From the NCBI GenBank assembly GCA_002633005.1, contig NMRA01000142.1, forward strand, positions 310,001 to 374,000: DNA of 64,000 nt. Reading direction: 5' to 3'. Source of the stretch: Phoronis australis. Lineage: Eukaryota > Animalia > Phoronida. Position 1 is the first letter of the stretch; each line of letters starts with the position of its first letter. Of the stretch, positions 15,692 to 64,000 are shown in pieces. The position numbers and the translations under genes are program-made. A model generated the notes under the pieces. That model was not told the origin of the DNA. It worked only from the letters and a program-made list of their open reading frames with translations, and ran no database searches.

Positions 15692-15725
<34 letters not shown>

Positions 15726-17271: not shown

Positions 17272-17389
17272 GTATTCACCACGATTCAATGATATTGTTC
17301 TAGCTGATTTCAAGCCCATTCCAACGATGGACGGAAAAGTTAAGGAACACAACTTTACTTTGAACGAACTATTGATACAGGCTGTCACA
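17272..17389 (+). CDS. TERT: Telomerase reverse transcriptase, TEN-domain exon (first recognisable exon; the start-codon exon was not identified)
   Basis: cttttcag|G...GTCACA|gtatgt. Translates YSPRFNDIVLADFKPIPTMDGKVKEHNFTLNELLIQAVT; the C-terminal part resembles TERT 'sLkELvarvlq'. Phase 0 out matches the next exon. Confidence 0.7.
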
Positions 17390-18498
17390 GTATGTTTATT
17401 AAAATACAAACAATGACGGATCCCGGGGTGATATTTCGTCATATGGACCGAAAATGAGCGATATTGCTTTCTCGAAATCCATATGACTTGATGCGCCTAG
17501 AGGAGTGGTCTATATTTGTTTTGTTCCACGACCACTGATACTTCTTTCCTCAAATTTGTTCATCTTTTATTAGATTAGTTTATTCTTAGTGTACCGGGTT
17601 TGATGTTTTGACATTGTCAGGTCACTTTGTGGTCAAGATTTGTGGTTTCTACAGCGTCCGATTGATCAGTTCGCGAATAGGAACATCTGATGTCTAAAAT
17701 GAAACGGTCTAAGTTACGATATTTTGGAAGTTGTAGCACATTTCAGCCTATCAGAAGACAGAAATATCAATTGCCATGCAATAATAAATCATAAGTGTGC
17801 CTGAGTGTTGTCATTTATTGTACTGGTGCACAGAAAGGGCATGGTCTCATGAGAATTTATGGTAAATCAATTTGAATTTCGAAATTTTGTATTTTTTTTA
17901 AAGCTTGCAACTTCATTGCTTTAAATCCTAAAAATAATTTCTGATAATGTAGTTTAACAACACTCCTTAACTATTGTGCCACTAATGAATTAAAACTTTT
18001 CTTAACATTTGTTACTAAATTCCACATGCTTGCCTTGCTAAGTGTATACTGAATTGCTCTACACAAGTTATTTCGAAAGATAACGTTTTTCACAACTAAA
18101 CACTCTGGATTAAAGCCCCACATAGTACTAAGTAGGTCAAGATGACATTCCAAACATCAAACTGCAATACATCAGGTTAACGACGGTGCATTTTCCCTCT
18201 GAAGCAATCGGTGACCTTCATTCGGTCCATTGTGTTATCATGTACAGTTGGGAAAGTTAACTCGCTGTATTAAAAACAAAACGAAGTGTTCCCCCCATAC
18301 AGTGGTTTTCAAAGATGTGTGGGGGTTTAAAACACTAAATAAGTGCACTTAAAATGTCCTAAGTGCAGTTTCCATAGTCTTATTCATTCTTTCTCTAATG
18401 TGATGTTCTTCGTTGGCTGTTTTATTGATATGTTGGTACGCTCTTCAGCATTCATGACAAAATAGCCAGCTATCAGCTTAATTTTAAAAAAATTTCAG

Positions 18499-18561
18499 AT
18501 TTTATTGAAGAAGAATAATGGTAAAGGTGGACAAAATATTATCTCACTGGGCTTCTCACAG
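18499..18561 (+). CDS. TERT: TERT TEN-domain exon
   Basis: atttcag|ATT...CAG|gtgagt. Translates ILLKKNNGKGGQNIISLGFSQ, equivalent to the TEN motif NVLAFGF of vertebrate TERT. Phase 0/0. Confidence 0.82.
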
Positions 18562-19910
18562 GTGAGTTATTGCCTTAACACAGAATTCTACAAATATTTC
18601 AAATCTCCGATGACAATTCTTCCTAAAAAAAGGAAACTGCTCCCCGTGTCTTCCACAGATACAAAAAGTTAGCCTTTGGGAATGATTTTTATTCATTTTT
18701 TCATCAACGGTTTGCTTGCCGGCTTATGCAATTAATAGCTTGAAGTGATTACACGTATTTGCCCAATAATTTTTGTAAAAACATCCGATTGGTCTCACCT
18801 TTTTCCTTACTCGGGCAAGAAATAATTTCTGGAGTTCATACGAATCATTTGTTATTGTTGTTTGCTGCGTTGGGTTAGCTTCCGTAACTGAAGCAGTTCG
18901 GCAGTCTTTGTTATTCCGTTTTATTGCAACTAATTTCCAATTCAATCAAAGATTCGGCACACGGTGATGTTCTTTTGAAAGAGCAAATATGCCCTTGAAG
19001 AATATTGTTTTTGACACCAGACAGGGCCCCCAATCCCTTCATCTGGGGGCTGAATATCGGCCCCATTCTCCTTGAAACATACTGAAAAATCACACGAAAT
19101 TCCCCTCATGAGGCCCAAAAATTCCCCTCAAGTGACTGAAAAATTCCCCTCGAGATTCGAAATACTTGTAACTCACACAAGTGACAATTTGAAAGAGCAC
19201 AAAATGTTAGTTTTGGCTACTTGAGGCGGAGACTATGAGGGATTGCATTAGGGTGGGGGGTGCTATTGATGGTGATCGGAAGAAGGCACAGGGATCTTTC
19301 CCTTCGGGTGAACGAGGGCCCTGCCAGAGTATGATTTATACCAGTAGCTGGTTCATTAAAATATACAATTATTGACTCTCATCAATATATTGGTTTTCAG
19401 ACCCAAAAATGTGATCTATTATATCATTACATCCGCTATATAATTCATGGAAGGAGGTTATGTTTGGGATTTCAATGAGATGTCGGTCAACTATAAGTTT
19501 TGTACCCAAAGTATGGAGATTTTGAAAGCATTTGTACGAGATGCCCAAAATGTACAAAAGGAACAATCGATTATATTTTTGGAAATTTATGTTTGTGTTC
19601 ATACAAAATATCCCGCAATTGAATCGCAATGAAATCCCCAGTACTTTTCGCAAAGGCTTAAAAGAATTAATGACGTTACCACGGAAGCGGTGAATATATG
19701 AGCCGTCAATGTATTGATTTATATTACGCGTGCGACGGTGCGACCTACCACGTACCTACCATTAATACTAAAACTTGTCAAATTCATTTAATTATAAAGG
19801 TCCTTCTATATGCAATTCCGTACCAGTCACCATGATAGCACTTAATTGTCCCTTTTTAAAAAACAAGTTAAATGTCACCTTTCTAGTATGACTCAATGAA
19901 CCATCAAGTT

Positions 19911-19955
19911 TATCTACCTAGTATCTATCTATCGATCGATCGATCGATTGATCGA

Positions 19956-19995
<40 letters not shown>

Positions 19996-20008
19996 TCTGT
20001 CTATCTAT
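19911..20008. repeat. Compound tetranucleotide microsatellite (TATC/GATC/TGTC)n
   Basis: Directly visible in the sequence. Confidence 0.9.
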
Positions 20009-20088
20009 TAACCTCTGCTGATTTTATAATTTCATAATCTGTCGAACTTATCAAAATGCTATCAAATTGAATGTTTTTACTGTTTCAG

Positions 20089-20207
20089 AACAAGGGAAAG
20101 ACTTGCTTTGCTTTAGTGAACTCGATGAATCCGTCACTGGAATTGTATGGGATCAGTCCCGCATTCCAGGAAATGAGTAAAAATATTTGGAAAATTCTTC
20201 ATACTAT
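20089..20207 (+). CDS. TERT: TERT TEN-domain exon
   Basis: gtttcag|AAC...ACTAT|gtgagt. Translates NKGKTCFALVNSMNPSLELYGISPAFQEMSKNIWKILHT(I), supplying the conserved W of the W-x-x-L-x-x-x-VGDD motif. Phase 0 in, phase 2 out. Confidence 0.82.
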
Positions 20208-20813: not shown

Positions 20814-20896
20814 TGTCGGAGATGCCTGTTTACTGATGCTGTTAACCCAGCTGTCCATCTTTGTGAAGAAAAGTGAGAGCTTCCTACAGATAGCAG
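20814..20896 (+). CDS. TERT: TERT TEN-domain (GQ motif) exon
   Basis: atttcag|T...GCAG|gtgcat. Translates VGDACLLMLLTQLSIFVKKSESFLQIA(G), which aligns by eye to human VGDDVLVHLLARCALFV...AYQVCG. Phase 2 in, phase 1 out. Confidence 0.87.
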
Positions 20897-21466: not shown

Positions 21467-22649
21467 GGCATCCCTTACAGCTGAAATTGGTTCAAGCCAA
21501 ATTAAGGCAAAAGGCAGTCTCTAAAAACAAGGAGTCCAAGTTAAAGAAGACCGAATCTTCTCGTAAAACCTCATATGAAGTGAAAAGAAAACAGTTGCCT
21601 AGTCAGAACAGAGCAAGAGGAAAGAATGATGAAAATGATGGTGTTTCAGAAAAAAGAAATCTAATGTGTGACTCACTCATAGAATTGGATGAATCGCCAT
21701 TACCTATAAATATGCAGAGGAGTGGAGATCAGTTGCCATTGGTTCCAAAACTACAGGTCTCCAACTTCTCAATGTCGCAACAAACACGAAAAAAATCATG
21801 TGTGGCTGAGAACAGGTGTGACTGTGCTACCGCATCTCAATTTGAGGGTTGCATTTCACCAGTCTTTTCCAAGTCTCAGGAGAGTTTGTGTAATTTTGAT
21901 TCGGGATTGTTGGAATTCACTGAATCATCTGCTCATCATTCAGATCACATTGAACATGCAATAGCAAGTTGGCAGTTTCCAAAGAGCCCGCAGCCAGTGT
22001 CGCTAAAAGACTTGAGCGTTCAAAGCTTTGATCAACGCGGAAGTGGAATGAGCACTCTTAAAAAATTCCAAACTCAGCCAATGAGAGTGTTACACAAAAC
22101 TGACCAGCAACAATTTGACAGCGGTTACCTTAGCAGAACTTGCACGAATCCTATTAGTTTAGAAAAAAGTCCAGCCCCAATGTCTCCAGTAGATCCTAGT
22201 TCACAGAGATCATGTTTGGATCGCCAGATGTCCAATTTCACGGATGGAGCGCTACATGATTGCTCACATGAACTGCCAAGTTTTTACATCAGTACTGTTT
22301 CTGAAGAGATGCCAAAATGTTCTAGAGGGTGTGGCAAGATGGCGCATGTGTTGACTGTATCCACAACTAACTGCTCAGGAAACAATTTGCACTTTTCATC
22401 ACAGAACCGGTCGTCATGTTCAAATAGAAGCAATAAAAGGAAGCTAGAATGTTATCTGTCATCGGCTGATGTCCTTCAATCAAAATGCAGAAAGACTGTT
22501 CTCAATGAAGAGACAGTTAATTCGTGCACAAGTCAATGTCTGACTGTTTCCAGCTCCGCTGAAGTTGCAAATGGCAGTGATGTTTTGAAGAAGCCTACAA
22601 GGGGACGCCGTGGGAAAAAGAGACCCAAGATTTCTAAGTGCAGCTACAG
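21467..22649 (+). CDS. TERT: TERT exon: end of TEN domain (G-HPL) plus a ~390-aa low-complexity linker
   Basis: Acceptor ttgtag|GG completes QIAG-HPL (human QVCG-PPL) in the frame of ORF 21448-22653. Ser/Lys/Cys-rich linker with a basic NLS-like end (KKPTRGRRGKKRPK). Ends at the donor TACAG|gtgagg (phase 2). Confidence 0.8.
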
Positions 22650-23525
22650 GTGAGGCTTTGTTTTATTTTCACATATTAAATACTATTTTCATAAAATGTG
22701 TGCGAATGATGTATTCGTCTGTACACTTTGTTATGTTCATAATGCCATAATATGGAGGTAGTATGAGATTGCTGGAACCATGGCTCTAACCCACACAGAA
22801 CTGATGAACTTTTATGGTTAACTTGACATGCAGAGATAATAAAACCAATGAAGATGGATATAATGTATAATAACCACTGCTGACAGTAAAGTTACATTCA
22901 ACATTCCAGGCATTTTGGCCCTTTGTCCGTGGTCAAACATGTGGTATGAGACAAAGGCTGGCCATTAAAGAAAGTGAATTGTACACTAATTGATTAAAAC
23001 TCTCATACATGATGTGAATATTCCAAATAAAATATAGCCATCAAGATACTACTAAAACATAGCTTTAGGTAATAATGGTTAAAAATACAAATAATTTAAA
23101 AATGCTAAAAATTACATTTTAGTAACGGTAACATAAAAACACAATAACATGATGTTTTTTAGTAGTTATGTCTATCCATATTTTAAGTCTGCATAGCAGG
23201 ACTTACTAATTTCTGAATTCAGTTCTATGAAAACACTACATTTTTCAGATTCTGCATAATTATGCAGGCTCATACACATAAGTTACAACCATGTGATGAG
23301 CAGACGACCGCAATCCATGGTCATGTAGTGTGATCATTTTGACTGTGAGGCAAACACTCTGACTGTCAATCCACTTCTGTCTGTTCTGTTATTTACAATC
23401 TGTATATTATCAGTGCTGACCTGATTATGAAGAGTTTCTCTCTACCTCTTCCTCTTGTGTTGTTCATTTGTGTCAAGGTCTACTTGTGAACAGTTACTAT
23501 GTTCTACTGGCTGTTCAACTACTTT

Positions 23526-24810
23526 TCAATGTTCTTCTCCACACCCCTCTTGTTCATGGGAAGTCTGTTGCTGTCTTGACCTATTTATCCTTTCCTGTGT
23601 CTCTGTTGACTGTATACTTGATGGTGTGAGAATTGTTTGCTGTGCTCTTTGTCTTTGGGTCATTTGTGTCGTAGCTGTCATCTGACCAATAGCTTCTTCC
23701 ACAGTTTCCTCTTGTTTATGGGTGGCTAGTTGCATACTTGACAAAATTGCACTTTCCTTTGTCACTGCTGAGTGTATGGTAGAGGCACTGACTATTGTTC
23801 GCTTCGCTCTTTGTCTTTGAGTCATTTGTGTCGTAACTGCCATCTGACCAATAGCTTCTTCTCCACGCTCCTCATGTTCATGGGAAGCCTGTTGCTGACT
23901 TGACATACTTGTCCTATCCTTTGTCTCTGTTGTCTGTGAAATGGAGGCAGTGACCATTGTTCGATGTGCTGTTTGTCTTTGGTTCATTTGTGTCATAGCT
24001 GTCGTCTGACCAATAGCTTCTTCTGCACTTTCCTCTTGTTTAAAGGTGGCTAGTTGAAGTCTTGATGAAATTGCACTTTCCTTTGTTGCTGTTGAGTGTA
24101 CGGCAGAGGCAGTGACAATTCTTCTCTGTGCTCTTTGTCTTTGATTCATTTGTGTCATAACTGCCGTCTGACCAACGACCTCTTCTCTATGCTCCTCTTG
24201 TACATGTGAAGCCACTTGCCGACTTGACATGCTTGTCCTTTCCTGTGTCTCTGTTGACTGTATACTGGATGCTGTGACAATTGTTTGCTGTGCTCTTTGT
24301 CTTTGGGTAGTTTGTGTCATAGCTGTCATCTGACCAATAGCTTCTTCTGCACGTTCCTCTTGTTTATGGGTGGCTAGTTGCAGACTTGACGAAATTGCAC
24401 TTTCCTTTGTTGCTTTTGAGTGTACCTCAGAGGCAGTTACAATTGTTTGCTGTGCTCTTTGTCTTTGATTCATTTGTGTCATAACTGCCATCTGACCAAC
24501 AACCTCTTTTCCACGCTCATCTTGTTCATGGGAAGCCACTTGCCGACTTGGCATGCTTATCCTTTCCTTTGTCTCTGTTGACTGTATACTGGATGCTGTT
24601 ACAATTGTTTGCTGTGCTCTTTGTCTTTGGGTAATTTGTGTCATAGCTGCCATCTGACCAATAGCTTCTTCTGCACTTTCCTCTTGTTTATGGGTGGCTA
24701 GTTGCAGACTTGACAAAATTGCACTTTCTTTTGTTGCTTTTGCGTGTACAGTAGAGGCAGCAAATACAATTTGTTGTGCTTGTTGTCTGTGGTCCATTTG
24801 TGTCATGACT
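23526..24810 (-). repeat. Coding tandem repeat, 162 bp / 54 aa, about 8 units with A/B alternation
   Basis: Anchor TCTGACCAA recurs at 23681, 23843, 24005 and onward at 162-bp steps. Unit resembles GQMxAMTQxxQRQRAQQTIVTASxxxSxxTKE. Confidence 0.92.
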
Positions 24811-27800
24811 ACCATATGTCCATCAGGTGTTTCATTCGGTGAGGACCTCTCCATTAAATCTGTGCTATTGGAATCTCTTCTGATGTCTCGGTTGCTTGAT
24901 GAATGTGTTACCGATGATGTGTTCATCTTTGTAACAGCAGACCCTGTCTCAGTTTCATGGACCTTCTTGGCAGTGCTTGATATTGAGGAGATTGCGGTTG
25001 CCTGCTGAAACACCTCTGATCTCTGCACAGAAACATCTTGTTGTGGTGACTCATTGGTTTCTGTGGAGCTACTATGCTTGTGGATTTTACTAGAAGCCTC
25101 ACTGTCATGAACATCTTGTCTCAACTGCTGTGAAGTTTGTTCAAGTATAGTTTGATGTTCAACATTTTCCGTGTCTAATGCTTCGGAAGTTGCCAAGCTG
25201 TTCGTTGTGTGAGACTGTATATTGTGTTTTCTTAATTCTGATAGTTTTGAGGATTTGTAAGCTGTAATCTTTTCTGTTTTCTGACTGCTCTTTCTTGGTC
25301 CAGTAGAAAGACTTGTGCTGTCTTGTTCCATTATGTTAGAATTATGTTTCAAGTCATATTGACATTCCGTGTGTACCTCTGAAATATCATGCTTCATTGC
25401 ACTTTGAATTCTTACCGCTTTTTTAGTACTTAATTTATGGGTAAGTGTTGTTCCTTTAGTGTTGACGGAAGATACTACTGTTGGTGCTGTAGATGTTGCA
25501 AATGGAACCAATGATGATGTTGCCATATCGGTCTGTTTGATTTTTGACCTCTGTTGAAACACTTGTGACTGGGAGCTCGAGGCATATTTAGCTTCAGTAT
25601 AATATTTCAAGCGTTCGCTCCTGGACTGTGTAGACAGAGGTGATGTAGAGCTAGATGCAAGTGATACTTCTTGCTGAAGATTCTTCCACTCTACTCCCAT
25701 TTGAGCTTCTGAAGTATTGTCTGCGTTTTCTCTGGGAAAAGTTTCATTTACACCTGGTATGTGTCTTTCAGATTGCTCTTTTGTTCGTTTTTGGTCTTTA
25801 GAGGAGTCACTGGTCCCAGTACTTGTGTGGAAAGACCATGACACGAATGACTGCATTTGTTCTGTTTTGAAGGTCATGGAAGGAAGCCTGTACACAACTT
25901 TATTGACATTCTCTGATGTTGGTGATAATTTTTCTGCAACATCCTCATTTGTTTCAGGGTTCCTGTTTACACCCTGCTCCTCTCCAGCAGAAAACATTTG
26001 TGAAAAGCTGGTGCTTTGCTGGTTGTATCCTGCTTCCTGTTTCGCTTGTTCATCAGTAAAGATCGTCACTGTACCTTTTATGTCCACTCTCTGCCCCAAA
26101 GGTTCTTTTACGTTTACCACAGTGGTTGCATGGGCTATTTCATGCCAAGCACTTAGTTTATCAGTCAAAAGCACATTGTCTTCTTCCTCCCGTGTGTTGC
26201 CATTTTCTTCATCATCTTCCACTACCATGCCCTCTGCTCTACCTTTACCGGGTGATGTGTGCTCTGTTGTCACTAGTTGACAAACAGAATTTTGATCAGA
26301 ATCGCTCATATGAGTGTGCCCTTGATCACTTTCTATTGTATCTATGTTTTGGTTGCTCTCGGTTTCTATTTGTTTTTCAGTCACTTCCATGACCTCTGCA
26401 TCTTGCGGCCATGCTGTTGTTGCTAAGTTTGTTACCGGTTGAATCTCAGTTTGTATTGGTTCACCATAGTCAGCCTCTTTGTTCCTATTTTCATTAGGCT
26501 CATTAGATAGATGTTTATCAGGGGTATCAATGGCCTTTAAAGTTGTAGTGTAGTTGGGAAGGTGTTTTAGGGGATCCTGTATATTGCTTAATCTGTTTTC
26601 TTGTCCTTCGGGTATGATGGACAGCTCATCAACAGGCTTTAACACCACTGCAGTTTGATAAGTTTGTTGTACCTGCTTTTTACGTAAATGTACAGTCCTC
26701 TCTATTCGATCTGTTGTGGTGAATGGCTTTTCCACAATGCCTTGTGCATTTTCTGACAATAGTCCTTTGTCACAGGTAAGGTCTTCTAATGTGTCATTTG
26801 GTGTAGGCTGTAGACATGACGTACTTGGCGTGCTTTGCTCAAAGCCTTCTTCTGCTTCTTGTGTTCGTGTGTCAATGGTTTCAATCTTGGATGTAATACT
26901 TTGATCTTCTTCACAGATATTTATGGTCTTTTGGTGTTTTTCACTTTTCTGTCCAAGTTTGTCAAAACATATTTGCACATTTTTCAAGGCTGTTTCTGTT
27001 CTTTGAACATTCTTCTGTGCTCTTATGTGTTGTTCCTTAACAGCTCCTGGTGCTGTTTGTTCTGATTTGGTTGTTGTCATTTCTAGTTTGTTTATCTGAG
27101 GCTGGGTCATTCTGGGTTCAAACATAACTGGGCATTGATCTGTTGCAGCCATGTCTATTCTGTTGGTAGACTGAGACAATTCGCTCATGTTGTTGCTCAT
27201 GTTGTTGTTTTGGGGTGTTGGCGGGTCGATGTGAGACTTCTCATAATATTGTTCAGTTTCACTTTGGTGAGATTTCCTGAACATCCCTGTGTCCTGATTG
27301 ATCATAAATGCTTCATCATCCGCCATGATTGTTTCAGGCTCCCTGTTGGTGCTGTCACTAAGTTGACGTAGATGGCTCTGTATTCTACAAAATCTACTGT
27401 CTGTCTCTTCAAATGTGATGGTAGGCTCATAGGCAGGTGTTAACATCGCTGTTGATTTGTCCATTAGATACATTTGCTTTTCAATTTTCCCAGCTTGTTG
27501 CATTGCAATTCTTTGTTGGTCTTCCTCATTGGGAACTCTTGGTATTGAAAAGCTGCTGGTCCCAGCAGATTTAGAAGTGTCAACTGCTTCTTGTGAATGC
27601 ACCATACCATGCGTGATGTTGTCATGAACCTCGTCAGGGATTGGTGTTATTATACAAGTAGTTTCTCCACTTTGACTCACACCTGTAGATTGGTCTTTAC
27701 TCATCCTGTATTTGCCATAAGGTCCTTTGGGCTTCTGTGTAAATTCATCAAAATACACTTGCACGCATTGCATTGCAATCTGTGAACGCTGAACATTTTG

Positions 27801-30800
27801 TGTCGTTATGGTTTGTTCATCAACAGGGCTTTGCACTGTATCTTTGTGTTCTATTGAGCATTCCAGAATTGGCCTCTGAGACTGCACTGTAGTTTCTGAC
27901 AGGTTCTCAATAGTGTGATCATCAACATCAGTGGTTACTCCAGATACTGGAGTTTGTACTCCATTAATGTCACTACCATTGATAATTTGAACAGCTATAG
28001 GTGTTGTGTAGTGGACTGTTGACTGCTCATTCTCATTCTCATTCTTTTCATCAGCTATAACAGATAGTTCAGGGTCACCAAAGCATCTACTGGAACTTGT
28101 TCTGCCAGTGTTTAATGTAAAAATGGCACCATTCAAATCGAGTGTTTGTGCAGTCTCTGGACTGTATTTGGTTATAGGAACTCCATGCAACAGTGTTGAA
28201 GCCTCTGCATTCTCTTTTCTGGTTGTTGCAGGTTGGCCTTTAAGTCTTTCCACTGCCTGTTGGTCAACTGGACACTGGTCAGTGTCTCTTGCTGTGTCAT
28301 GTTGGTTTTGACTTTCTTCTGCTTCTGGTTTATCAAGGTCATCGGATTGGTCTGTTGGGGTTGCTGGCTCTAATATCTTGAAAGCTGTTTGGTCAAAAAA
28401 CTGCTGCAGTCGGTTCAGGTGGTCTTCTCTGCCTTCCTGTCTGATTTTTGTGATTGTTTCCTCACCAACAGGCTTCAACTCAATTATATGTGTTTCATGC
28501 ATTTCTTTTGGTTTGACATCAACGTCACTTTGGGCAGCATCCGTCTCTGCACTGCAGTTGGTTATAGGAAGTCCTTCACATGGCAGTGTTGCAGTCTCTG
28601 CATTCTCTTTTCTGGTTGTTGCACCTTGGCCTTTTAAGCTCTCCACTGGTTGTTGGTCAACTAGACAGGGGTCAGTTTCTCTTGTTGTGTGATATTGGTT
28701 TTGACTTTCTTCTGTTTCTGGTTTATCAAGGTCATCAGATTGGTCTGTTGGGGTTTCTGGCTCAAAGGCCTTGAAAGCTGTTTGGTCAAAAAACTGTTGC
28801 AGTCGGTTCTGGTGGTCTTCTCTGCCTTCATGTCTGATTTTTGTGATTGGTTCCTCACCAACAGGCTTCAACTCAATTATATGTGTTTCATGGACTTCTT
28901 TTGGTTTGCCATCACTGTCACTATCGGCAGCATCCGTCTCTGCACTGTAGTTGGTTATAGGAACTTCTTCTCGTGACAGTGTTGCAGTCTGTGCATTCTC
29001 TTTTCTGGTTGTTACTGCTTGGCCTTTTAAGCTTTCCACTGCTTGTTGGTCAACTAGACACTGGTCAATTTCTCTTGTTGTATAATAATGGTTTTGACTT
29101 TCTTCTGCTTCTGGTTTATCAAGGTCATCAGATTGGGCAGTTGAGGTTGCTGGCTCAAAGACCTTGAAAGCTGTTTGGTCAGAAAACTGCTGCAGTTGGA
29201 TCTGTTGCTCATGTTGTGTGCTTTCTTGCCTGTCTTTTGTGATTGCTTCCTCAGTGACAGGCTTCAACTCAGTTTTATGTTTTTCATACGCCTGTGCGAC
29301 ATTTGTATTGGCATCAGATGATCCTGTTAAGGTTGCTGGCTCAATGGTCTTTAAAGTTGTTTGGTCATAAAACTGCTGCAGTCTGTTCTGTTGGTCTTCT
29401 CTGCCTTCTGGTCTGATTTTTGTGATTGTTTCCTCTCCAACAGGCTTCAAACCAATTATATGTTTATCATGCACTTCTTCTGATTTGTCATCAACATCAC
29501 TATCAACGGCATTTGTCTCTGCACTGTAGTTGATTATAGGAACTCCTTCATGTGACAGTGTTACAGCCTCTGCATTCTCTTTTCTCGTTGTTGCACCTTG
29601 GCCTTTTAAGCTTTGCACTGCCCGTTGGTCAACTACACACTGGTCACTTTCTTTTACTGGGTCATATTTGTTTTGACTTTCCTCTGCTTCTTGTTTATCA
29701 GGGGCATCTGATTGGGCAGTTGGCGTTGCTGGCTCAAAGACCTTGAAAGCCGTTTGGTCAGAAAACTGCTGCAGTTGGATCTGTAGCTTATGTTGGGTGC
29801 TTTCTCGTCTGTCTTTTGTGATTGTTTCTTCAACGGCAGGCTTCAACTCAGTTTCATGTTTTTCATGTGCCTCAGCGTCACTTGTAGTGGTGTCAGATGA
29901 TCCGGGTAAGGTTGCTGGCTCAATGGTCTTTAAAGTTGTTTGGTCATAAAAGTGCTGCAGTCGGTTCTGGTAGTCTTCTCTGCCTTCCTGTCTGACTTTT
30001 GCGATTGTTTCTTCTCCAACAGGCTTGAACCCAATTATATGTTTATCATACACTTCTTCTGATTTGCCGTCAATGTCACTGTCAACAGCATCCGTCTCTG
30101 CACTGTAGTTGGTTATAGGAACTCCTTCACATGACAGTGCTACAGCTTCTGCATTCTCTTTTCTCGTTGTTGCACCTTGGCCTTTTAAGCTTTCCACTGC
30201 CCATTGGTCAACTATACACTGGTCAATTTCTTTTACTGGGTCATATTGGTTTTGACTTTCTTCTTCTTGTTTATCAGTTGCATCTGATGGTGCAGTTGGG
30301 GTCGCTGGCTCAAAGACTTTGAAAGCCGTTTGGTCAGAAAACTGCTGCAGTTGGATCTGCAGCTTATGTTGTGTGCTTTTTCGTCTGTCTTTTGTGATTT
30401 CTTCTTCAATGACAGGCTTCAACTCAGTTTTATGTTTTTCATACGCCTCTGCGTCATTTGCATTGGCGTCAGATGATCCGGGTAAGGTTGCTGGCTCAAT
30501 GGTCTTTAAAGTTGTTTGGTCATAAAAGTGCTGCAGTCGGTTCTGGTAGTCTTCTCTGCCTTCCTGTCTGACTTTTGTGATTGTTTCTTCTCCAACAGGC
30601 TTGAACCCAATTATATGTTTATCATGCACTTCTGATTTGCCGTCAATGTCACTGTTGACAGCATCCGTCTCTGCACTGTAGTTGGTTGTAGGAACTCCTT
30701 CACATGACAGTGTTACAGCCTCTGCATTCTCTGTTCTGGTTGTTACACCTTGGCCTTTTAAGCTTTCTTCTGCTTGTTGGTCAACTAGACACTGGTCAGT

Positions 30801-51800: not shown

Positions 51801-54800
51801 AAAACTTCACTGTGGCTGAAGTCAACTGTACCCATAGCATTTGAACTAATGTCGGACCTGCTACCATGCTGTGTTTTGGATATCTCTAAATATTCATCCA
51901 GACTGCCATGACCTGTACTAGCTTTGTCCATGTTAACCAAAATGTCTTCCTGGCTTTTGCCATTTTCTTCTTTGTCACTGGCATCATAACTTGGATTTTT
52001 ATTGGTATTTCTATCTTCTATTACAACTGTAAGTTTGTTGTCTTTTACAGTGTTCAAATCCTCTCGGTCACAAGGTGCTTTTTGCTCAATACGATCTTTC
52101 CCAGTTTCCACTTTGTTGTCTCTTTCTCTGTAACTGTCTTCAGCATCTGGGTGGACTTCGTCATTATCACTCTTTGCCTGCAAACCTGCTCCATCCTTGT
52201 TATCTTTTTTGCCGTTAATAGCATCCTCTGAATCTGTTTGAGGTTTGAAGTCTTTCTTACCTACTTGATCCATCTCCTCTGAAACACTTTCACATTGACA
52301 TTCATCGTTGGTATCATTGCCAGTGACCTCTGAACCATATGTATACACGTCATATGCCTCATATTTTTCAGTTGTCTCATTGCCCTTTTCAGACATCTCA
52401 TCAATTTCATATTTTTTATCATCAGTTTTTTCATGCCTGTCATCAGTTTCAGTGTAATCTTTTTCATCCTCTTTTGTATCTGTGTCCTGTTTTTCAGAAT
52501 ATTTTAACGCTTCTAGTTTTTGGCCTTCATCATCATTTTTATCACTGTCTTTTTCTACCTCAGTTGTGTCATCTTGGTGGATCACAGCAGCCTCTGTTTT
52601 TTCAAACAGTTCTGAATTTTCTGCGGTGTCATCTTTTGCCGTAGCTTCCACAATGTTTTCGCTGGTGTTATTGTCTTTGTCCATGGCGTCTGGGTACTTC
52701 TCCTGCTTGTTGTTGATATCTGCACTCATGTTATCAATATCTTTGTACCTAGTGCCAGCTTCTGCTTCAGTATCTTCTAAGTCTTCTTGGTCGATGGTAG
52801 CGTACAGCTCCAAATCTTCAACAGTCATGTTAACAACATCTTCTTTGACAGCAGCCTCCAAACCTTTCAGGAAGGTACCCTCTTCTTCGCATATTGTGTC
52901 ATTCTCAGCTTCTTTGTCAGTGGTTAATGAACTTTCTTGGCATATGGTATTATCCTTTTTGTCTTTGCACAATGCCTCTGAGTATTTTCCATCCTCAATT
53001 TTCTGAATGGAAGCATTGCTAGTGATCCCATCATTGTACATTTCATGTGAACATTCTCCGCTTTTGGTGGCATCTCCATCTTCACTGGCAATTGTAAAGT
53101 CTATTTTATGCACACTATCCTCATTATCTTTGTCCATGACCTCTGAGTACTTCTCTTGCTTTTTGTTGGTGGCATCTGTTGTGTTCTGAATGTGTGACAT
53201 TGTTTCAGACCTGATGCTTGTTTCTGATTCAGTGGCCTCTGTATCTTCTTGATAGATGAGAGCACACAGCTCCAAATCTTGAGCAGAGCCTTCATGACTG
53301 TCTTCAGGATATGGATCAGCTATGTCATTACCATCACTCTTTGCCTGCACACCTTCTCCATCGCTGATATTATTCTCCTTAACAGTGGCCTCTTGATCTA
53401 TTTCATGTTTGAGATCTTTCTTACCTCCTTCATCCATCTCTGAAGCACTTTTTTCTTCATTCTGGTTCACCTTGTCACCTTCTTTGTCAAAAGTTTTTGA
53501 ATCTTTTGTACAGAAGGAGTCATTATCATTGTTTTCTTCATTGTCCTCTGAATCTGCTTTGGTGACACTAATGTTGTCAAATTCTCTTTTGTTGTCATTT
53601 GAACCTTCTTGAAAGTTGACACTTTTGTCATCATTAACAACAGTCTCCTTGTCTTCATAGCTGTGGTCATTCTTGTCAGCTCTGTCAGCTACACACCTGT
53701 TGTCCTCCACAACTTCTTTTTCTGTGTTGCTTAACATCACACCAACATCGTCATCTTCATCTGCTGCATCCGAACATTCTTTGCTGTTGATACCATTCTT
53801 ATCCTCTTGATTCATGAAATCTAAAATTTCTTCCCTGTTATTACCTGTTTTATCCTTGTCTATATCATCTAAACTTTCATGGTGCGTTGTAACACTCTCT
53901 ACATTGTCTAAGGTAATAGCTTCTAAGTCGTCTTCCTCTATGGTATGCATGTTGTTATGTTTGTCCATATTCGTTGGATCGTCATTTTCTGTGGCAGTTA
54001 AACTTTTGTCTTTTTCTTGATCAGTTTTATCAAAAATTTCTTCATTGCTGGTAAGGCTTTGTTGAGCATTGTAACTTTCTTTGATTTCTGGGAGACCATT
54101 AACGTTATCAGCATCACCGTCTGCACTCTTAGAACTTGTGTCCTTTTTACTTGTATTATTTGAGTTGTCTTCATCATCTTCAATCAGGTTCGTAGCTCCA
54201 CCACTGCTATCTTCATCTCTGTTATATTTGATATCGGAACAGTCTTCATTACTGTTACTCATTCTGGTGTCCTTGTCCACAGCACCAGAACTTTGCGCAG
54301 TTGGGATGTCTTTCTCTTGGCAATCCTCATTGATAATTTTGTCCTGTCCATACTTTGCATTTTTATCTTCATTGACTGGAAGACCCTCTTGGGTGATGCT
54401 GTCATTCTTCTCTTTGTTTGTTAAGTCTAAATCTTTGGTTTGGGGAATATAAACTTCTTTTCCCTCAAATTCATTTTGCTTGGTGGTCCTATTTTCTTCT
54501 CTGCAGGTGTTGACCTCTGAATCACCATGGAAAATTGTGTCATCCCTGTCTTCTTTGTATATTGCCTCTGCGCCTGTTGCATGCCTAGCCTCATTCTGAT
54601 CAAAACTCATGTTAACAGGATCTGAACTCTCCTCATCCTTAGTCAACTTGACATCTTCAGTAGTGACATCGGAATATTCCTTGCTGCCATTGTTTTCAGG
54701 GTGGATACCCACCCTTTTAACTTCGTCATGCACACAGTTTTCAAGTGAATTGTCTTCTGACCTAATATTCACATTATCTTCAAGTTTGATATCTTCTGAG

Positions 54801-57800
54801 TCCTTTTTGCAGCTGGTGTCTTTTTCCTTGTCTTTGGTGATGCTCTGCACATCTGTTTCATATCTAGTGTCGTCATTTACTTTATCTGTCTCATGACTGC
54901 TTGCTGTTACATAACCTTGCACATCAATGGTATCATCATTGCCATCTTTTTCTGTTGCCTCTGAACTTTCTGGATACCTGGCATCATTGCTATCTTTTAC
55001 ATCAGATTCTTCCTTTTCTATGGATTTACTTTCATTGGTGCCAGTTGTTTCTAGGTGTTCTTCATTCTGGGTTTCGCTGTCATTGTTTCTATCGGCGATA
55101 TCTTCCTCCCTGCTATCATCAGCATCTTTGTCAACATGGTCAGACTGTCTTTGTCTGTAATCCACATCATCATTCTTGAAATCTGAACTCTCTTGACACT
55201 CTTCATTTTCTGCTTCATCCATGTCATTGACATGTACAACTTCTTGGTTCGTAGAATTGACTGCATTGTCAACTTGTGTTTTGCTAGTCTCCTCTAGATT
55301 TTTATCACTTTTATCACCGAGCTGGGATTTTTCTTGTCTGTTTGCATTATCAACTGTATCTATGTCTATTGAGGCTTCTTCTTGCAGGCAACTACTGTAT
55401 TCTTTCTCATCAGTGGTTTGCGTCTGTTCTGAGAACATTGCATCATTTTCTCCTTCGTTGTTGTCAACCTGTGAGTCATTTTCATGTCTGTTGTCATTAA
55501 TTTTGTCATTGTTAACTGAACTTGTCTTTCCATCTTTAGTAGTGTCCTCCAAAGCTTTTTCATACCTGTAGTTGCATGTGGTGTCTTCTTTGTTCACAAT
55601 TTCATTAATTTCTTCCATGTCTTCTTTTTCAGTAGTCTCTGAAGCCTCTTGGTCTTTTTCATATGTTGTACCAGTATCAATACTGTCATATTTTTTAGCT
55701 GGGGTGCTAAAAGCTCCTTCAAACTTGGGTTCATTTTGCACCTCTTGATTGATTGCCTCAGAGATGTTTTCATATGATAATGTTTTGCTTATGACCTTTG
55801 AACCATCTTCTTGCTTGCCTTCATTGTTCTCTTGAAGAGTTACCTGTTGACTGTTTGCAAAACTTCCAATAATCTGGATTTCAGTTCTAGTGGTCTCTAA
55901 CAGTGTTTCTTGTCTTGTAATTCCTTCTTTATTCAAACCTTCTGTATCCTGATATGTAAGATGAACATCATCTGTCTCACGCACCCCTGACAGTTCATTT
56001 GTAGCATCATTTGTATTATCTTGTGAAATTTCTTGTGTCGTAGTATTCACACATGTGTCTTTTACAATATGGCATTCTTTGTCTTCAGAAGAATCTGGTT
56101 TTTCTTCTTCCCTGATTTCATTTGTATCATTTTCAGTACTGATATCATCCTCATCTTCATTCCCGTTATCTTGATCACCAGGCCCAATTTCCGATTTATC
56201 TAGTCTTTGGGTATTTAATCTCAATTCCGCATCTGTCTTAATACCCTTGATTGTGGTATGAGAAGCTATATTCCAAATACCCTCTTCGTCTGTACCCGGT
56301 TCATGTTTGTTAACATTTCTGTTGTCTATATCACTGGTGTTTCCATTTCCTTCATCTTCAGAATTTTCGCTTGAGTCATCGCCCACATTTTTTAGTTTGG
56401 TCCCAAGACCTTCCTCACTTGTGGGATCTGCACTGGCATCTTCATCACTGTCCATCATTTTTGTATCTTTGCTTCTTTTGTAGTTCTTGATCTCTTTGTC
56501 AGTGACCTCTGGATCTTGTTCCTTTCTGGTATGATTGATTTTTGAATGTTCGGAGTTGTCTTGCGACTTGGCGTTATCTTTCAACGCTAAGGCTTCTAAG
56601 CCGTTTTCATCGCCATCCTTGTCAGAGCGTTGCTCCACTGAGTGTTCTTTACATGTGCTATCAATCTCATCATCTTCACCCTTGTCTTTCAAACTTTTTT
56701 TATGTTTCCAAAGTGTAGTTTCTTCAAATTGGATGTCATCATCTTTGTCTTTGATAACATTTTCCTTGTTTTTATCGTCTAAATCTTCTTTGAGATTGAT
56801 TGTCTCTTGACAGCCATCAGTTTCATAAGTGGTCTTAGAATCGTTATTGTATTTCAGTGTGTCACTCTTGTCTTGTTGGGTAGCAGGAACTCCTGTCTCG
56901 TCTTCATGTACAGTATCATCCAAGTTGTCATTGTCTTCTAGCATTGAATCTTTGTGTGTGGAAAGACCTTGTTCGTTGGTTGTTCTGTCATCTTTGTCAT
57001 TGGTTTCTTGGCTGTCATTGGATACTTTATTGTTTTTGTCTTGCCGTTCTGAATCCCTTTCTTGGCTTATTGCATTCTCATAGTCATTGTCTGCAGTTTC
57101 TAAACCTTTTTTCTGTGCTTCATTCTCATCAATTAGCTCATAGTTGATGAGCTCTGTACCTTGTTCGGTTCCCCTCTCATTGGATCTGTTGGTAGTTTCT
57201 GGAAATTCTTGCTTGCCATTTTCATTAGATTCTCCAGAATCACACCTTGTATCATCAGTCTCATTCTCCTTATCAATAGGCTCTTCATGTCTGGTGATGT
57301 CTTCTTCACCTCCATAAATTTTATCTGAATCTTCTTGGTGCGTTTTATGGTCCTCATTGTTTTCATCTTTAATGTTTGATCCTACTTTATACCTGGCAAT
57401 TTTTTCACCATCATGGGCAATGGTGTTTGAGCCTTTTTCCAATTGAATACTATCAACTTGATATTCAGCCTCTGAGACTTCTTCATAATTTGTTTTGTTG
57501 TTGTCTTCCTTGACTGTGCTGACTGTTTCTTCTTTAGGTCTGCTTGTAGTCTTTTCTTTGTCCAAGGTTCTTAAATCATCTTCACTGGTGCTATTTTCAT
57601 TTTTCTCCTGGATGATCTCCGTATCCTCTTGGTTCCTGGTATGGTTCTGTACCTTTTGATTTAAGTAATCTTCCTGTGACTTGTCGACGTCAGCCTCTTC
57701 ATCCATAAAGTCACATTTTTCACTGTCACCTTTCTTGTTTTTTGTGACTTCTGAACTGCCTTTGATCCTGATAACATTTTCATATTTCTCTGTAGTCTTT

Positions 57801-60800
57801 GGATCATTTTTGTCTGTGGTCTTTCTATCATCGTCAACTTTGTCAGCCTTTTTCAAGTCTTTGATCAACCATTTAGAATGTGGTACATTCTGGATTTTCT
57901 CATCAACTATGGGCACAATGTCAGATTTTTCATCTTGTGTGCTTTGTTGATCTCCTCTTTCTGTGACCTGTGAATCATCTGCATATGCGATATTGGCATA
58001 CTCTTCGGCAGTGTTTTCAGAACCTTCTTTGGCCTCAACCTCTGAATCTTCATGTGTCATGTCTTTACTGTAGTTCACATCAGATTCTTTTGAGATGTCT
58101 TCATACCAGATATGAGCATCACTATCTTCTTCCTTATCTTCTGCAATTTCTCCTATGGCTTTAGAACTTTCATTGCATCTGCTGTCATTTGTTGCATACT
58201 TGTCACTGGTCTGAGAACCTACACCCACTTTGTCAATTCCATCTTGTTTGCCTTTCACCTCCGAACTCTGGATGTCATTCATGTCACAAATTGTTGTGGG
58301 CTCTGAACCTTCATGCCAGTTAGAATTCTCATTAGATGTTTTCATACCATCTATCTTGTCTTCTTTCGTGGTATCACTTTGGTCTTCTGTGTGAGTAACT
58401 GCCAAGACTTCTTCGTATTTTGAAGTAATGTCCTTTTCATTGCCCTTAGCTTTAATTTCATCATCCTTTGTTCCAATATCTTGTTCTTTGTAAGCCTCTT
58501 TGTTGCCATTGTCTGAGACCACCAGTTCTGACTTAAGTGACGTATCATTCTCTTTTTCTGTGTCTGCAATCTCCGAGTCTTCTTCATCATGACAATGCTT
58601 GCCATCATATTGGCCTGTTGCCATTGAACCTTCTTCATCTTTGATGTTAATTTCTTGAATAGCCTTTGAGTCCTCTTGTCTGTAAATAATTTGATAATCT
58701 TTCACCATGGTTTCTCTATCTTCATTAGTCTTGTCATGTGCCATCAGATCTGAACCTCTTTCAGGGCTTGCGTTTTCGTCAACTTTGTCTACATCTACTG
58801 AATGATGTTCGTGCTCTTTTTCAGTCAACGGTGAATCATCTGCATATACAATATCTTTGTCAGATTTTAAATCTATGGTCTCTGAATCCTCTCGGCCTAC
58901 TGCAACTAGATGTCCTTGGGTGATGTCATCACAATATTCCATCACAACTGCCTCTGAACCCTCATGATACCAGGCTTCATGCTCATATTTGTATAGGACC
59001 TTTAAACCTTTTTCACTATCTTCCTCTGCCTCGGTACTTGCTATGTTTGAAGTTTCCTTGGAGCTGCTATCATTCTCTTGTTTTTTATTAGTCTGAGTAA
59101 CAGTATCTACATTGTCATTGCTATCAAGATCATCTTTCAGGTGAGATTTTGGTATTTTCCAAGTTTTGTTATCTTTCCAAGTGCCTTCATCACATGTTTC
59201 AGATTGCTCAGAACTTCTAAATGTACCGTGGCTCTCATTGTGATTGTCTTGAGTTTCAATGCTTTCTTCATTCATCGATTCATGTTCTACATCTTTGTCA
59301 GTGGTCTTCCAGGATTCTTCCTGCCTTGCAACATTCTCATTGAAATTTTCTTGGCCTTTATCAATATCATCATATTTAACGAGAACCTCTGCATGGTTTT
59401 GACTTTGAACATTTTCTTGATTTTGGTCCACTGTTTTGGGGCTAAGTTCATAACGGTTATCAGTCAAGTGAACTACATTCATGGTAACGGCATTTTCTTT
59501 TAACTTGGTAAGATTGTCTTGTTTTGTATCAATGGCCTTTAACGTATCTTCGTAGTTGCTGTTATTCTTTTCAAGTTGGGTCATTGATGTTGAAGGAGGT
59601 TCTAGATTGTTTGTTGTTAAGTGATCTTGGCTCACGGTTTCTAGGACTTCGTCAGCCGTGGTGTAATTTTTCATATCTGTATCAATCTGCTCTGAAGTAA
59701 TAGCACACCTTCTGCCGTCAGCTGCATCTGCATAGTCTAAGTCTTCTTCATGCATAGTATTAGTCTCTTGTTCGTTTTGTACAGTTCTCGTCTTTTCTTT
59801 GTGCAAATTATGGTCACTATACTCATTCTTCACTGATGCTAAACCTTCTTCATATTTGGCATCCGTTTCAGCAGGATTGTCTTTACCCATTGAGAGTTGT
59901 GTATCACGAACAAAGTCAGATCCCTTTGTGGCTACATCCTTTTCTGTCTTCTCTTCTTTGTCATTGCTATAGCCAAGCTCTGTATCATAGTCCAATTCTT
60001 GTGAATTTTGGTCATGACTGCTGTGACTGCTTTCATCTTGGTAATGGCTGTCACCCATGTCTTTTTCTTTGTTAGTTTCTGATGAACGTTCTTGACATGT
60101 GATATACTGATCATTTTCAATTGGATCTGAAATGTATGCGTAATTAATATCATCAACTGCTTTGTTGATGACTTCTGACCCTTCTTGTGCGGTATCATTG
60201 TCATACCCTGTATATTCTGGCTTTGCTTCAGAACTTTCATACTTGCCGTTTTCATGAGAGTTGTCTTTTTCAACTAGCTTGTCATAGCTGTTCTCATAAG
60301 CTTTGTTGATGTTGCGGAATCCATATTGGTGTGTGTTGTCTTTCTCATCATCTTTTCCCACTGCCTCTCCCAAATCATTGATGCACTTAGCTTCCGAGCT
60401 TAGCTTAATGCTGGCAACATTTCCTGTGTCTATGGCACTGATATCTGACTCTTTAAAGCAGGTGTCAGCATCAGAATTCTTTTTGATGATGTCTTTGGAG
60501 CTTCCAAGCCGAGAATCATTGTTGTCAGTTGTTTCTGTAACTATGAGGCTTTCCTCGTGCTTGATATTTGCGTTGTTATCTTCGTCTGTTGTTTCAGAGT
60601 TTTCTCCATCTTTGAAGTTGACCTTTGGAATCTGTCTGGCAATAGCATCACTCTCATCGTTGTCAGCATCTTCTGAACCAGTGTCATTCTTAGTGTCATT
60701 ATTGTGTGAGGCATCAAAGTCTTCTGCTAGTATGGTATCAATGTTGTTGTCTTTGTTCGTGGTTATTGACCATGCTTGTCCATACCAAGGTTCTTCTACA

Positions 60801-63800
60801 TTATACATGGTCACTGACCGTTGTTGATACATTGTGTTATTTTGTAGGCATTCGTTCTGCTTAATTTCAACATCAGTTTCTGTTTTGATGGTTTCTGACA
60901 ATTCTGGTTCATCCTTAGTTTCACGATCCTGCGTTTCATTCATGACATATGACTGTTCTTCATATCTTGTATCATTGTCGTCTTGATTGTCTTCAACAGT
61001 CTTAGCTTCTTCCAGTTTCATTTCCACCTTTGTTCCTGTATGTTGTTTAGCACCGTCATCATTTTCCCGTTTACCTTCATTTTTATCATGATCGGGCATT
61101 AGTTTGGTACATGCTTGTTCTGACTCATCAGTCTTTTTGAGTCTGTTTGTTTGTGCCACTAAGTCATTACTATTCATCAAATCATTTTTTCTTCCATTAT
61201 CAGTTTCCAGTTCAGTATAGTCTGCCTCTGTTGATGCTTCATCTGATACTTTAGCAACAGACTCTTTAATCTTGCTGTCCTCAGTATCTAGGAATGGTAG
61301 TTTATCATCTAGAAAAGCAGAGTCTGCTTTAAATATTTCTTGAACTACCTCATCCTCTAGGTGATGTTTATTTGGCTCGGGCACTATAGTTTCGTGCTCT
61401 GTTATGGTTAGTGGCAGGTGCTCTAGTTCTGTTTGTTGCAGATTGTCATGTTCAGTATGTAAAGTTATGAAGTCCTGCCGATTACGTTGGTCCTGGCTCC
61501 TATCAACTGATTGATAACTTTTTGCATCTGGCGGAATTTGTTTGTCATCATTATCCGATGGTGTTGATATTTTCTTGTCTTCTGTGGACCCAGTTGATGA
61601 TGATGCTTCATTGATACTTTTACTCTCTGGTTCTGATTCTGCCAACTGGTTGCTGGGTAACTGGTCGCTGATACTTGCTTGTAATGAAAAACTGTGTGCA
61701 GCTCCATCTACTTGAAACTGGTGTGGAGCATCACTTTTTGATGTTGATTCCACCTGCGCCGCATGGTCATGCTCTAACAATTGTTTATGATCATGCATAG
61801 TGTCTTCAGTTGACGTTGGTTCTTGAACTTTTTGTACGGTTTCCCTTTGGCTGTGGATAGAGTCTCCTGGTACAATTACACAAGTGTCTATCTCATCCTC
61901 GATTGCTTGCTCCATGCTACTGTCTTCCATTTCATGTTCGTGAAGTTCTTTCATATCGGTTTCCTTGGTGATACTTGGTTTCACTTCCACATGCTCTAAA
62001 GCGTCCTCCCTGTTAGATGTCTCTGCTGCACTTTTGCTACCTCCCTCTCTCAGTTGGTCACTACTAGTCATGTGATAGATAATTTCATCAGTTGTTTCTA
62101 TATCTAACCTTACACCATTGTTATCATTGCCATGGTTAGCTTCCCACACTTCAGCCAAAGACTCATTCTCATGTCTGACATTGTCTTGTGTCTTCAATTC
62201 ATGGTCTCCTAAATCTATGCTTTCATTTGTGGCATTACCTGTCTGTGCTGGAACACCGTCTGTTTCAGACTGTAATGATAGGCATGATGCTGCCTGTGAT
62301 GTCTCTGTTACCATTGGTCGTTTGTCCATGGATTTGTCGTCATTTGTTGGTCGATGAAGTACTGGCACTGTACTAAGCATCGTTCCTTGTTCAGGCAGTA
62401 AGTCACACCTGTTTACAGATTCAAGTCTAATTGATGGTATTGTGGACCATACAGAGATTTCACTTGGTATCTGCATTTTGTCATCTGTAGTACTTTTTGT
62501 GGGCGTGATTCCTTTGCGATTAATCTGTGGTTCTTCAAGAATTATCTCATGTTGCATTGACTGAATGTATAGGTCTTCCTTCGAGTTAACTGAGACATCT
62601 TGGGTTTCACTTGTGCCTCTTATGCCCATGGTCTTGTTCTTGGTTTTTTGTTCAGCTTCATTTGTTTCCTGAGCTGTAGTGCTGATGTTTTTACCAAAGT
62701 GTAATTGGATAAGCTCTTTCTCATCTGTAAGTACCATAGTTCGAGCTCTGCTTTCGTCTTTCCATGGACTATCCACAGATGTCAGTGTACTTCTAGCCTC
62801 TGATCCATGCATTCTTGTTTGGATCCTCTCATTCATTTGCATACTGTCAAATATGTATTTTGTTCTTCTCTTTGCTATAGTGTGTAGATTCTCCTTGGTT
62901 TCTTTGACAACAAGAGGCTCGTCAACGCATGCGTCATCTTCTGCTGTAACATTTAACTTCTCCCTGTCTTGAGCTTCTTGCCAATCAGTTCCAGTGATTA
63001 TTTGGTTGTCTATTCTGTCCACTGGTTGTTGTCTGTTTGATACAGTTTCGTGGTCTATGTAATTGCTTGTCAGCTGCTTGTCACTTATATCTGTTGTCAT
63101 CAATTGGGCTGCTGGTGTTCTTTCTGGAGGAAGAATTTGGAATAAATCATTTAATGTCTGTGTTGGCCTTGTTATAATGACAGCAGCTACATGTGGTTCA
63201 TCAACAGCTTGTTCGGCAACCCCGTCAACTTTGATGAAACGTAAACTGACTTCTTTTCTTGTTACCACATCACTTCTGTCCTTATCTAGTGACTCCAGTG
63301 ACAATTTCTTCACTGGTGTTGTTTCTTTGTCAGTCCGTTGAAGAGGGCTTTGCTCATTCATAACTTCTTGACAGTTACCAATCTTCCTGACCCGATTGTC
63401 ATCGTCACTTTCCTGATTGTTTTGTCTGACTGTTTCATTCCTTGCACGTGGACCTAATTCTTGAATTATGTCATGTGTGATTGAATAGTTTATATCAACC
63501 GCTGCCTCTTCAGTTTCAAACTTTGTTGGATGTGCTTCTTCTCTTGAATTTTTTTCATGATCTTCTTCCTGTGGTTCTTGTGATACTTCGTTTTCTGACT
63601 CCGGGGTTGGTGTTTTAGACAGAATTTCCAAGTCCGTTATCAGCTGCTCATAGCTCTGACTTATTTTTGTTGTCTGACCTAAGCTTCCTTTTGGAACCAT
63701 TCTTTCCTCTAGTTCTAGACTCAGATCTTTTATGTCCAATGGGCTTTTGTCTTTCCAACATAATTTTGTGTACGGTACAGTCTGACTGCTCAACTGTATT

Positions 63801-64000
63801 TTGTGGAGCTGAGTTGATGTTGCTTGCGGAAGCGAACTGTCTGATTCACGTCGTGGTCGATCTCCATTCACTTCAGGAGGACGTTTGATGTCGGGGATGG
63901 CGTCTAAACTTCTGTGACCTCTGTGCTTTTTATGCAAAGGTTCCAGCATGTATTTTACAGTTGTTGATGTAGAAGAAACCCCACCGTCATCTGTCTGTTG
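23526..64000 (-). CDS. Giant intronless ORF / terminal exon encoding at least 13,080 aa of acidic, repeat-rich, probably intrinsically disordered protein (5'-incomplete)
   Basis: The 9993-aa ORF (33968-63949) and the 3492-aa ORF (23526-34004) join in frame once the 1232-nt duplicate at the N join (34047-35278) is removed. The frame is still open to 64000 (QQTDDGGVSSTSTTVKY precedes the listed Met). Composition is dominated by D/E/T/S/N/K/Q. Indels seen between internal repeat copies preserve the frame. No folded domain or transmembrane segment was recognised. Confidence 0.9.
28130..31250 (-). repeat. Coding tandem repeat, ~576-579 bp / ~193 aa (four full and two internally deleted units)
   Basis: Shadow ORFs recur at 29164, 29743 and 30319. 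Protein unit KPVGEETIxKxRQEGRED..NRLQ.F.DQTTLKTIEPATL...QLQQFSDQTAFKVFEPATP...ESLKGQGATTRKENAEAVTLS. Confidence 0.92.
32813..35278. other. Probable assembly artefact: overlapping contig ends (two haplotypes) joined by a single N
   Basis: 32813-34046 (1234 bp) and 34048-35278 (1231 bp) are near-identical, differ by scattered SNPs and one 3-bp indel, and directly abut the lone N at 34047. Confidence 0.88.
40700..53500 (-). repeat. Coding tandem repeat, ~1.62-1.64 kb / ~545 aa; three near-identical central units plus diverged or truncated flanking units
   Basis: Anchor encoding (Q)HGSR near 45328, 46945, 48580, 50218 and 51859 (spacing 1617-1641 bp), with a diverged copy near 42260. Outer boundaries are approximate. 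Confidence 0.9.

Follow-up and report, generated by a model that had tools for sequence, protein, structure and literature searches.

Does an intron of a telomerase reverse transcriptase (TERT) gene harbour a giant gene that runs in the opposite direction? This question is raised by a 64-kb stretch of the phoronid Phoronis australis (contig NMRA01000142.1, positions 310,001 to 374,000; hereafter the window, 64,000 nucleotides numbered from its first letter), in which the 5' part of a likely TERT gene on the plus strand is followed by a stop-free minus-strand frame of more than 39 kb. We consider it probable that a TERT intron longer than 41 kb contains this giant antisense coding exon, which probably belongs to a separate gene as its last or sole coding exon. 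The analysis was confined to the window, positions past 64000 being outside its scope. The DNA is animal-like, with 39% GC and spliceosomal introns, and the assembly is a draft, with N at 728-869, 15675-15691 and 34047.

RNA evidence was taken from three raw-read runs of 2026 under the same species name (X1-X3), with about 18-19% of each run used, and one contig set (X4) was compared beside them. The RNA individuals differ from the individual behind the window assembly. Over the TERT exons, X1 and X2 have their first mates on the minus strand, an orientation that stranded libraries mostly yield for plus-strand RNA. The interval 21467-28100 drew 44 reads from X1 and 29 from X2, and zero from X3 and X4.

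The earlier note on this DNA had described five TERT exons between 17272 and 22649. All five were recovered, with GT..AG ends and compatible phases, but the set had overlooked the exon that carries the ATG and a non-coding exon before it. The resulting chain is as follows.

15000..15359 (start approximate), plus strand: TERT 5' non-coding exon, with donor GTGAGC at 15360 and an RNA joint from 15359 to 16240.
16240..16329, plus strand: TERT coding exon 1, ATG at 16241; acceptor RNA-confirmed, donor predicted.
17272..17389, plus strand: TERT coding exon 2 (TEN), predicted splice sites.
18499..18561, plus strand: TERT coding exon 3 (where the GQ motif begins, with N..GF), predicted splice sites.
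20089..20207, plus strand: TERT coding exon 4 (GQ motif, conserved W), predicted splice sites.
20814..20896, plus strand: TERT coding exon 5 (GQ core VGD..LL..FV..Q), donor RNA-confirmed.
21467..22649, plus strand: TERT coding exon 6 (GQ end G-H-P and a serine-rich linker of about 386 residues), covered by RNA, phase-2 donor.

Spliced by these coordinates, the six coding exons yield a stop-free run of 551 codons that closes in phase 2 at 22649; the exon at 16240-16329 joins the next one in phase 2. All introns within the visible chain are GT..AG and measure 570-1,527 bases. The joint from 15359 to 16240, itself GT..AG, was crossed by 2 reads in X1 and 3 in X2, and the joint from 20896 to 21467 by 4 reads in X1. 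The other four internal joints were unlisted in the RNA, where the listing threshold was 3 reads and the depth at these joints was below 1. Exon 6 was covered at a depth of about 3, every read being on the TERT strand.

From its sequence, the plus-strand gene is likely TERT, an identification based on motif comparison with the GQ consensus printed in the supplement of PMC5405514. By eye, a TEN domain bearing the GQ motif was found, in which N..GF sits 42 residues before the conserved W, as in the consensus. From this W to the closing Q.G.P, an eye count with one gap gives 14 identities in 38 positions, which corresponds to a binomial value of 2e-8 at a 6% chance rate and of 4e-4 after correction for register and gap. 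The divergent middle of the motif brings the corrected value over the full 79 columns to only 0.03. The match crosses two splice junctions. The pattern occurred in 0 of 20,000 shuffles, a count that is not independent since the pattern was defined after the match had been seen. Behind the motif lies a linker of 386 residues, 16% of them serine, with no Pfam match; this is the order of the animal TERTs described in PMC5405514, a TEN domain that carries the GQ motif, followed by a poorly conserved linker. The same source reports the GQ motif as missing in arthropod and lophotrochozoan TERTs, so that its presence, taken by itself, would weakly suggest a deuterostome or early-branching animal.

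Some observations within the TERT introns may be recorded here. The frame through exon 5 is open into both flanking introns (20782-20928, plus strand), and the intron-encoded residues beside the exon loosely resemble their spliced neighbours, probably by chance. In the intron 18562-20088, at 19372-19629, open stretches of 62-128 codons occur, with no Pfam match above cut-off. The part at 19372-19560 was considered as a TERT exon and rejected, being in the wrong phase and having reads that continue into unlike sequence; because reads there run into unlike sequence, 19372-19629 is probably a mobile-element remnant. Short interspersed repeats at 19100-19210, 20360-20580 and 21255-21296 draw many RNA reads from elsewhere, on both strands.

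We then considered what follows exon 6, whose donor reads CAG/GTGAGG with 22649 as the final exon base. The earlier note had proposed looking for reads that leave this donor, and five spliced reads were found in X2. These are all of its partly fitting reads; each departs from the window immediately after 22649, and their loose ends, of a median 96 letters, agree fully on a single continuation. The 30 loose-end letters shown, read in phase 2, are in frame and encode S-F-H-K-V-L-P-R-R-R, which may resemble the run-up of the TFLY motif. The 30-letter continuation had 0 matches in the window on either strand with up to 3 mismatches. Therefore, the five spliced, in-frame reads together with the absence of their continuation from the window indicate that the donor is used, that the message continues coding and that the next exon lies outside the 64 kb. 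A TERT derivative consisting of TEN and linker only, the other arrangement that the earlier note had allowed, is contradicted at the RNA level, and the intron of more than 41 kb is thereby favoured, with the next exon probably beyond 64000. [quoted passage not shown] The intron would take the following form.

22650..64000, plus strand: inferred TERT intron, 3' end outside the window, based on the absence of the read continuation from the window.

Its length would exceed 41.3 kb, of which about 40.1 kb is visible after removal of 1.2 kb that the assembly contains twice.

This interval is nearly filled by the minus-strand frame, which lies as follows together with the duplicated assembly segment and the probable 3' end of the giant gene.

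23526..64000, minus strand: giant stop-free frame, open at 64000, from a scan for open reading frames (ORFs) with the doubled 1.2 kb merged; at least 13,080 codons.
32809..35278, no strand: assembly artefact, 1.2 kb present twice around the N at 34047, from self-comparison at 97.9%.
23021..23525, minus strand: probable 3' untranslated region of the giant gene, from one X1 read pair.

In the raw window the frame appears as two ORFs, 64000-33968 (10,010 codons) and 34052-23526 (3,508 codons), which meet at the lone N at 34047. Around this N, 32809-34046 (1,238 bases) repeats 34044-35278 at 97.9%, with 22 substitutions in 1,231 bases and one 3-base indel, and the doubled segment resembles two overlapping contig ends of different haplotypes. 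As a consequence, whoever annotates the present assembly will meet a spurious frameshift in the giant frame at 32809-35278. The merged frame measures 39,243 nt, or 13,080 codons, with a single stop at its end, whereas the two other frames of the merged sequence hold 563 and 1,765 stops; from base composition about 866 stops would be expected in the giant frame, and none is seen before its end. The ORF of about 39 kb claimed by the earlier note thus holds for the merged sequence, although the raw sequence splits it at the N, and the true length may be greater, since the frame continues past the edge of the window. No start is visible within the window. An acceptor-like site at 63123 was rejected as the start of the giant exon, the frame being open for 292 codons further.

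The giant frame ends with a stop at 23526-23528, 876 bases past the TERT donor. Minus-strand reads extend to about 23020. Between the stop and TERT exon 6, the only minus-strand AATAAA/ATTAAA is the AATAAA at 22662-22667, a putative polyadenylation signal that sits 13-18 bases from the TERT donor.

The predicted product is acidic (24% aspartate plus glutamate, isoelectric point 4.4), has a mass of about 1.47 MDa and no hydrophobic segment, and is predicted to be disordered, with FoldIndex below 0 over 95% of its length. A Pfam scan of about 13,500 residues, in three pieces that together take in the frame except for 30 bases, found no family above its cut-off. The first 900 residues matched 0 of 1,136 candidates in the protein collection, and the Atlas returned only scores below 0.8 for the frame. 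The frame contains three groups of tandem arrays.

44267..52483, with older copies towards 41300, minus strand: units of about 546 residues (1638 bp), from self-matches inside the giant frame.
28153..31247, minus strand: units of about 192 and 131 residues, inside the giant frame.
23527..24822, minus strand: C-terminal units of 54/108 residues (162 bp, 7.5 copies), inside the giant frame.

The repeats allowed the coding character of the frame to be examined. All of the first 25 self-match offsets listed (of 34) are divisible by 3. Gap lengths in blastn were not enriched in multiples of three (92 of 761), which we tentatively attribute to blastn splitting gaps. The ratio of nonsynonymous to synonymous substitution rates (dN/dS) was 0.36-0.88 in all nine codon alignments of repeat pairs and 0.43 between the doubled copies, and the repeat pairs are free of stops, although changes at the synonymous rate should have made 1-18 of them per pair. 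The giant frame thus behaves as coding. Given this range of dN/dS and the lack of stops, selection appears to preserve the open frame but to put little constraint on which residues it encodes, as would suit a spacer.

The giant frame may be weakly transcribed, antisense to TERT. About 4 antisense read pairs in X1 and about 2 in X2 (estimated from depth) fall on the frame or just past its stop. Over 22799-28100, about 6 antisense pairs stand against 1 TERT-strand pair (p=0.06); the latter, from X2, could be unspliced TERT RNA. No TERT-strand reads were found in 22799-23908 in X1 or X2. The read orientations are opposite, as are the strands of the two genes, the giant frame being on the minus and TERT on the plus strand. 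X1 and X2 each contain TERT reads plus a few antisense reads; these are bulk samples, in which cells are not separable.

These data together support the hypothesis of a giant antisense coding exon within a TERT intron. The exon would encode an acidic and disordered region of roughly 1.5 MDa that serves as spacer or scaffold, and may have grown by in-frame tandem duplication, which would have lengthened the host intron. TERT splice signals would be unaffected by this growth, because the giant gene is on the other strand: an antisense gene would be invisible to the host spliceosome, and the cost of enlargement would lie in transcription time and polymerase collisions. Both genes would be transcribed towards each other over the same DNA, the giant transcript ending close to the TERT donor, and they would interfere mutually if active in one cell, an expectation drawn from the Drosophila work in PMC5174743. 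Since convergent genes would interfere, expression in different cells or at different times is likely, rather than dedicated mutual regulation.

Several points weigh against this reading. The profile match to TERT, on which the earlier note had made its identification depend, was blank when run exon by exon: Pfam searches of nine pieces, single TERT exons included, returned no TERT family, nor did 66 of the 68 stop-to-stop frames of at least 62 codons in 1-23520 (the two omitted overlap exon 6). Sequence searches of the PDB with five exon-sized queries gave 0 matches each, the linker exon matched 0 of 3,704 candidates among the longer proteins of the protein collection and the GQ-core stretch 0 of 9, and an Atlas search with the GQ stretch gave no usable match. 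Blank searches with single exons carry little weight, because the exons are 21-39 codons long. Two representative-library matches with E of about 1e-3 were dismissed as repetitive ORFs with no relation to TERT. The continuation that represents the downstream TERT exon had 0 matches in metagenome contigs; it amounts to 10 residues only, too few to call the RNA-binding domain (TRBD), and comes from the single run X2, the 2 partly fitting reads of X1 being below the listing threshold. Transcription of the giant frame amounts to about 6 pairs, from 5.3 kb examined out of 39 kb.

As for the nesting proposed by the earlier note, the giant frame does lie antisense just behind the TERT donor but, without a visible start, may be the last exon of a gene interleaved with TERT 3' exons. 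One form of this, compatible with the nested layout and in our view possible though on the unlikely side, is that the frame is the giant exon of ankyrin or of a similar multi-exon cytoskeletal scaffold. According to PMC5135030, giant ankyrin exons are among the longest animal ORFs, lack cross-phylum homology, often bear repeats and are rich in E, D, T and K, and in echinoderms and protostomes the long exons lie downstream of the death domain. By size, composition and terminal position the frame here would fit: it ends in a stop and shows no start, and it is a single multi-kilobase stop-free exon, fast-evolving, acidic, rich in S and T and with internal tandem repeats. However, no ankyrin, ZU5, UPA or death domain was found in the window with Pfam, though exons upstream would lie past 64000, the repeat units are 162-1638 bp long compared with 36-228 bp in ankyrin exons (PMC5135030), and the frame, at 39.2 kb or more, is longer than all long exons tabulated in that source, the largest being the 27,804 bp of Drosophila Ank2-XL, the fly genome's largest ORF. 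A very long stop-free exon of disordered, non-conserved sequence was found, as in ankyrins, but this feature is not ankyrin-specific, and composition alone is insufficient to identify the gene.

A stronger functional version of the nested layout appears doubtful: the antisense gene, sitting in the intron between linker and RNA-binding domain as a single exon of more than 39 kb that encodes a disordered region of at least 1.5 MDa, would act as a cell-type-specific off switch for telomerase, every full-length TERT mRNA having to be transcribed head-on through the giant gene.

We regard it as unlikely that the TERT 5' half is a truncated segmental duplicate abutting the 3' end of the giant gene, with a complete TERT elsewhere yielding the spliced reads. 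Two observations would fit such a duplicate and also tell against the nested layout. Exon 6 has 25 listed positions (about 2%) at which the reads depart from the window, many of them in all reads of both runs; these differences fit alleles and would also fit a young paralog. In addition, the region does duplicate, as is seen from the following feature.

4777..6666, plus strand: dead partial TERT 5' copy, about 80-90% identical to 15018-17143.

This copy comprises the non-coding exon, the ATG exon, which has lost 3 bases and carries a stop at codon 8, and a portion of the intron behind it. Unlike it, the six coding exons of the chain are intact with 0 stops, and the read difference of about 2% equals the divergence of the doubled copies around the N (1.8%; 22 substitutions over 1,231 bases). 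A second TERT gene would have a precedent in the purple sea urchin, which has two.

A misassembly, in which the start of the TERT intron and the 3' end of some unrelated giant gene have been wrongly joined at a point from 22650 to about 23020, seems quite improbable. The assembly is a draft with gaps and at least one unmerged overlap, and no linking read pair or long read was seen between both sides of the proposed join. On the other hand, 15692-34046 is without N, no long repeat lies at the proposed join, and the stretch from donor to stop (22649 to 23526) has neither a long copy elsewhere in the window nor a pile of repeat-derived reads. RNA depth is zero at the proposed join, whereas the repeat-bearing introns pile up reads, and the single gap within the giant frame is bridged by the 1.2-kb overlap.

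That the giant frame is a remnant of a mobile or viral polyprotein, or an untranslated repeat open by chance, is very improbable: although homologs are lacking (first 900 residues in the protein collection; Atlas) and the largest viral ORFs match it in size, no protease, helicase, polymerase, integrase or capsid domain reached the Pfam cut-off, nor did any other Pfam family in the residues searched, the composition is disordered and acidic, and the frame lacks all of the expected stops, has dN/dS below 1 and is kept between repeats.

Upstream of TERT, the window contains other genes and fragments, as follows.

9012-9278 and about 11170-11314, minus strand: two exons of a lipocalin gene (Pfam PF00061, E 1.5e-13), with a G-x-W motif in the upstream exon.
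14254-14616, plus strand: fragment of a GIY-YIG endonuclease (Pfam PF01541, E 1.2e-5), just upstream of the TERT promoter and probably a Penelope-type retroelement remnant.

This lipocalin gene, presumably apolipoprotein-D-like, is in head-to-head orientation to TERT and is flanked by TERT and the dead 5' copy.

The giant antisense exon within the TERT intron may be compared with known systems. Opposite-strand nested genes combine a long host intron with a gene on the other strand, as is likely the case here, with the frame open at 64000. In Drosophila, about 10% of genes belong to nested structures; of the nested ones 71% are antisense, and these have a median coding length of 898 bp (PMC3814207); the giant frame, in contrast, has at least 39,240 bp and nearly fills the visible intron. 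In Caenorhabditis elegans the pair polq-1/ceh-10 offers a DNA-repair polymerase as host of an opposite-strand nested gene, and a nested gene can induce a short host transcript (both from PMC12274878). Fly nested pairs diverge in expression, which has been interpreted as interference avoidance (PMC5174743). Extra introns occur in intron-rich TERTs (11 more than in human for sea urchin, 27 for oyster, 29 for sponge; PMC5405514, sections at hand), and the gene described here differs from the animal TERTs in that text by a TEN domain spread over six exons and a post-linker intron of more than 41 kb with a giant antisense frame; those sections make no mention of a gene nested in TERT. Relative to the giant ankyrins of PMC5135030, it is the longer repeat units and the absence of visible ankyrin domains in the window that set the giant frame apart. 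A literature search by titles and starts of abstracts among the top 20 entries, with most subscription papers outside its coverage, found no gene nested in a TERT intron, and one by listings found no larger single exon, which does not establish a record. Antisense nesting is a common and known arrangement, and what is unusual is the TERT host and the scale.

Being longer than the fly genome's largest ORF and any ankyrin exon tabulated in PMC5135030, the giant frame would stretch the sizes known for single coding exons and for disordered protein regions. With genes arranged like this, automatic annotation will break TERT into pieces, and the N-terminal domain can then look lost. If the layout is true, telomerase expression in this animal would be physically tied to a second, very large transcription unit, and the role of antisense collision in setting invertebrate telomerase activity would become testable.

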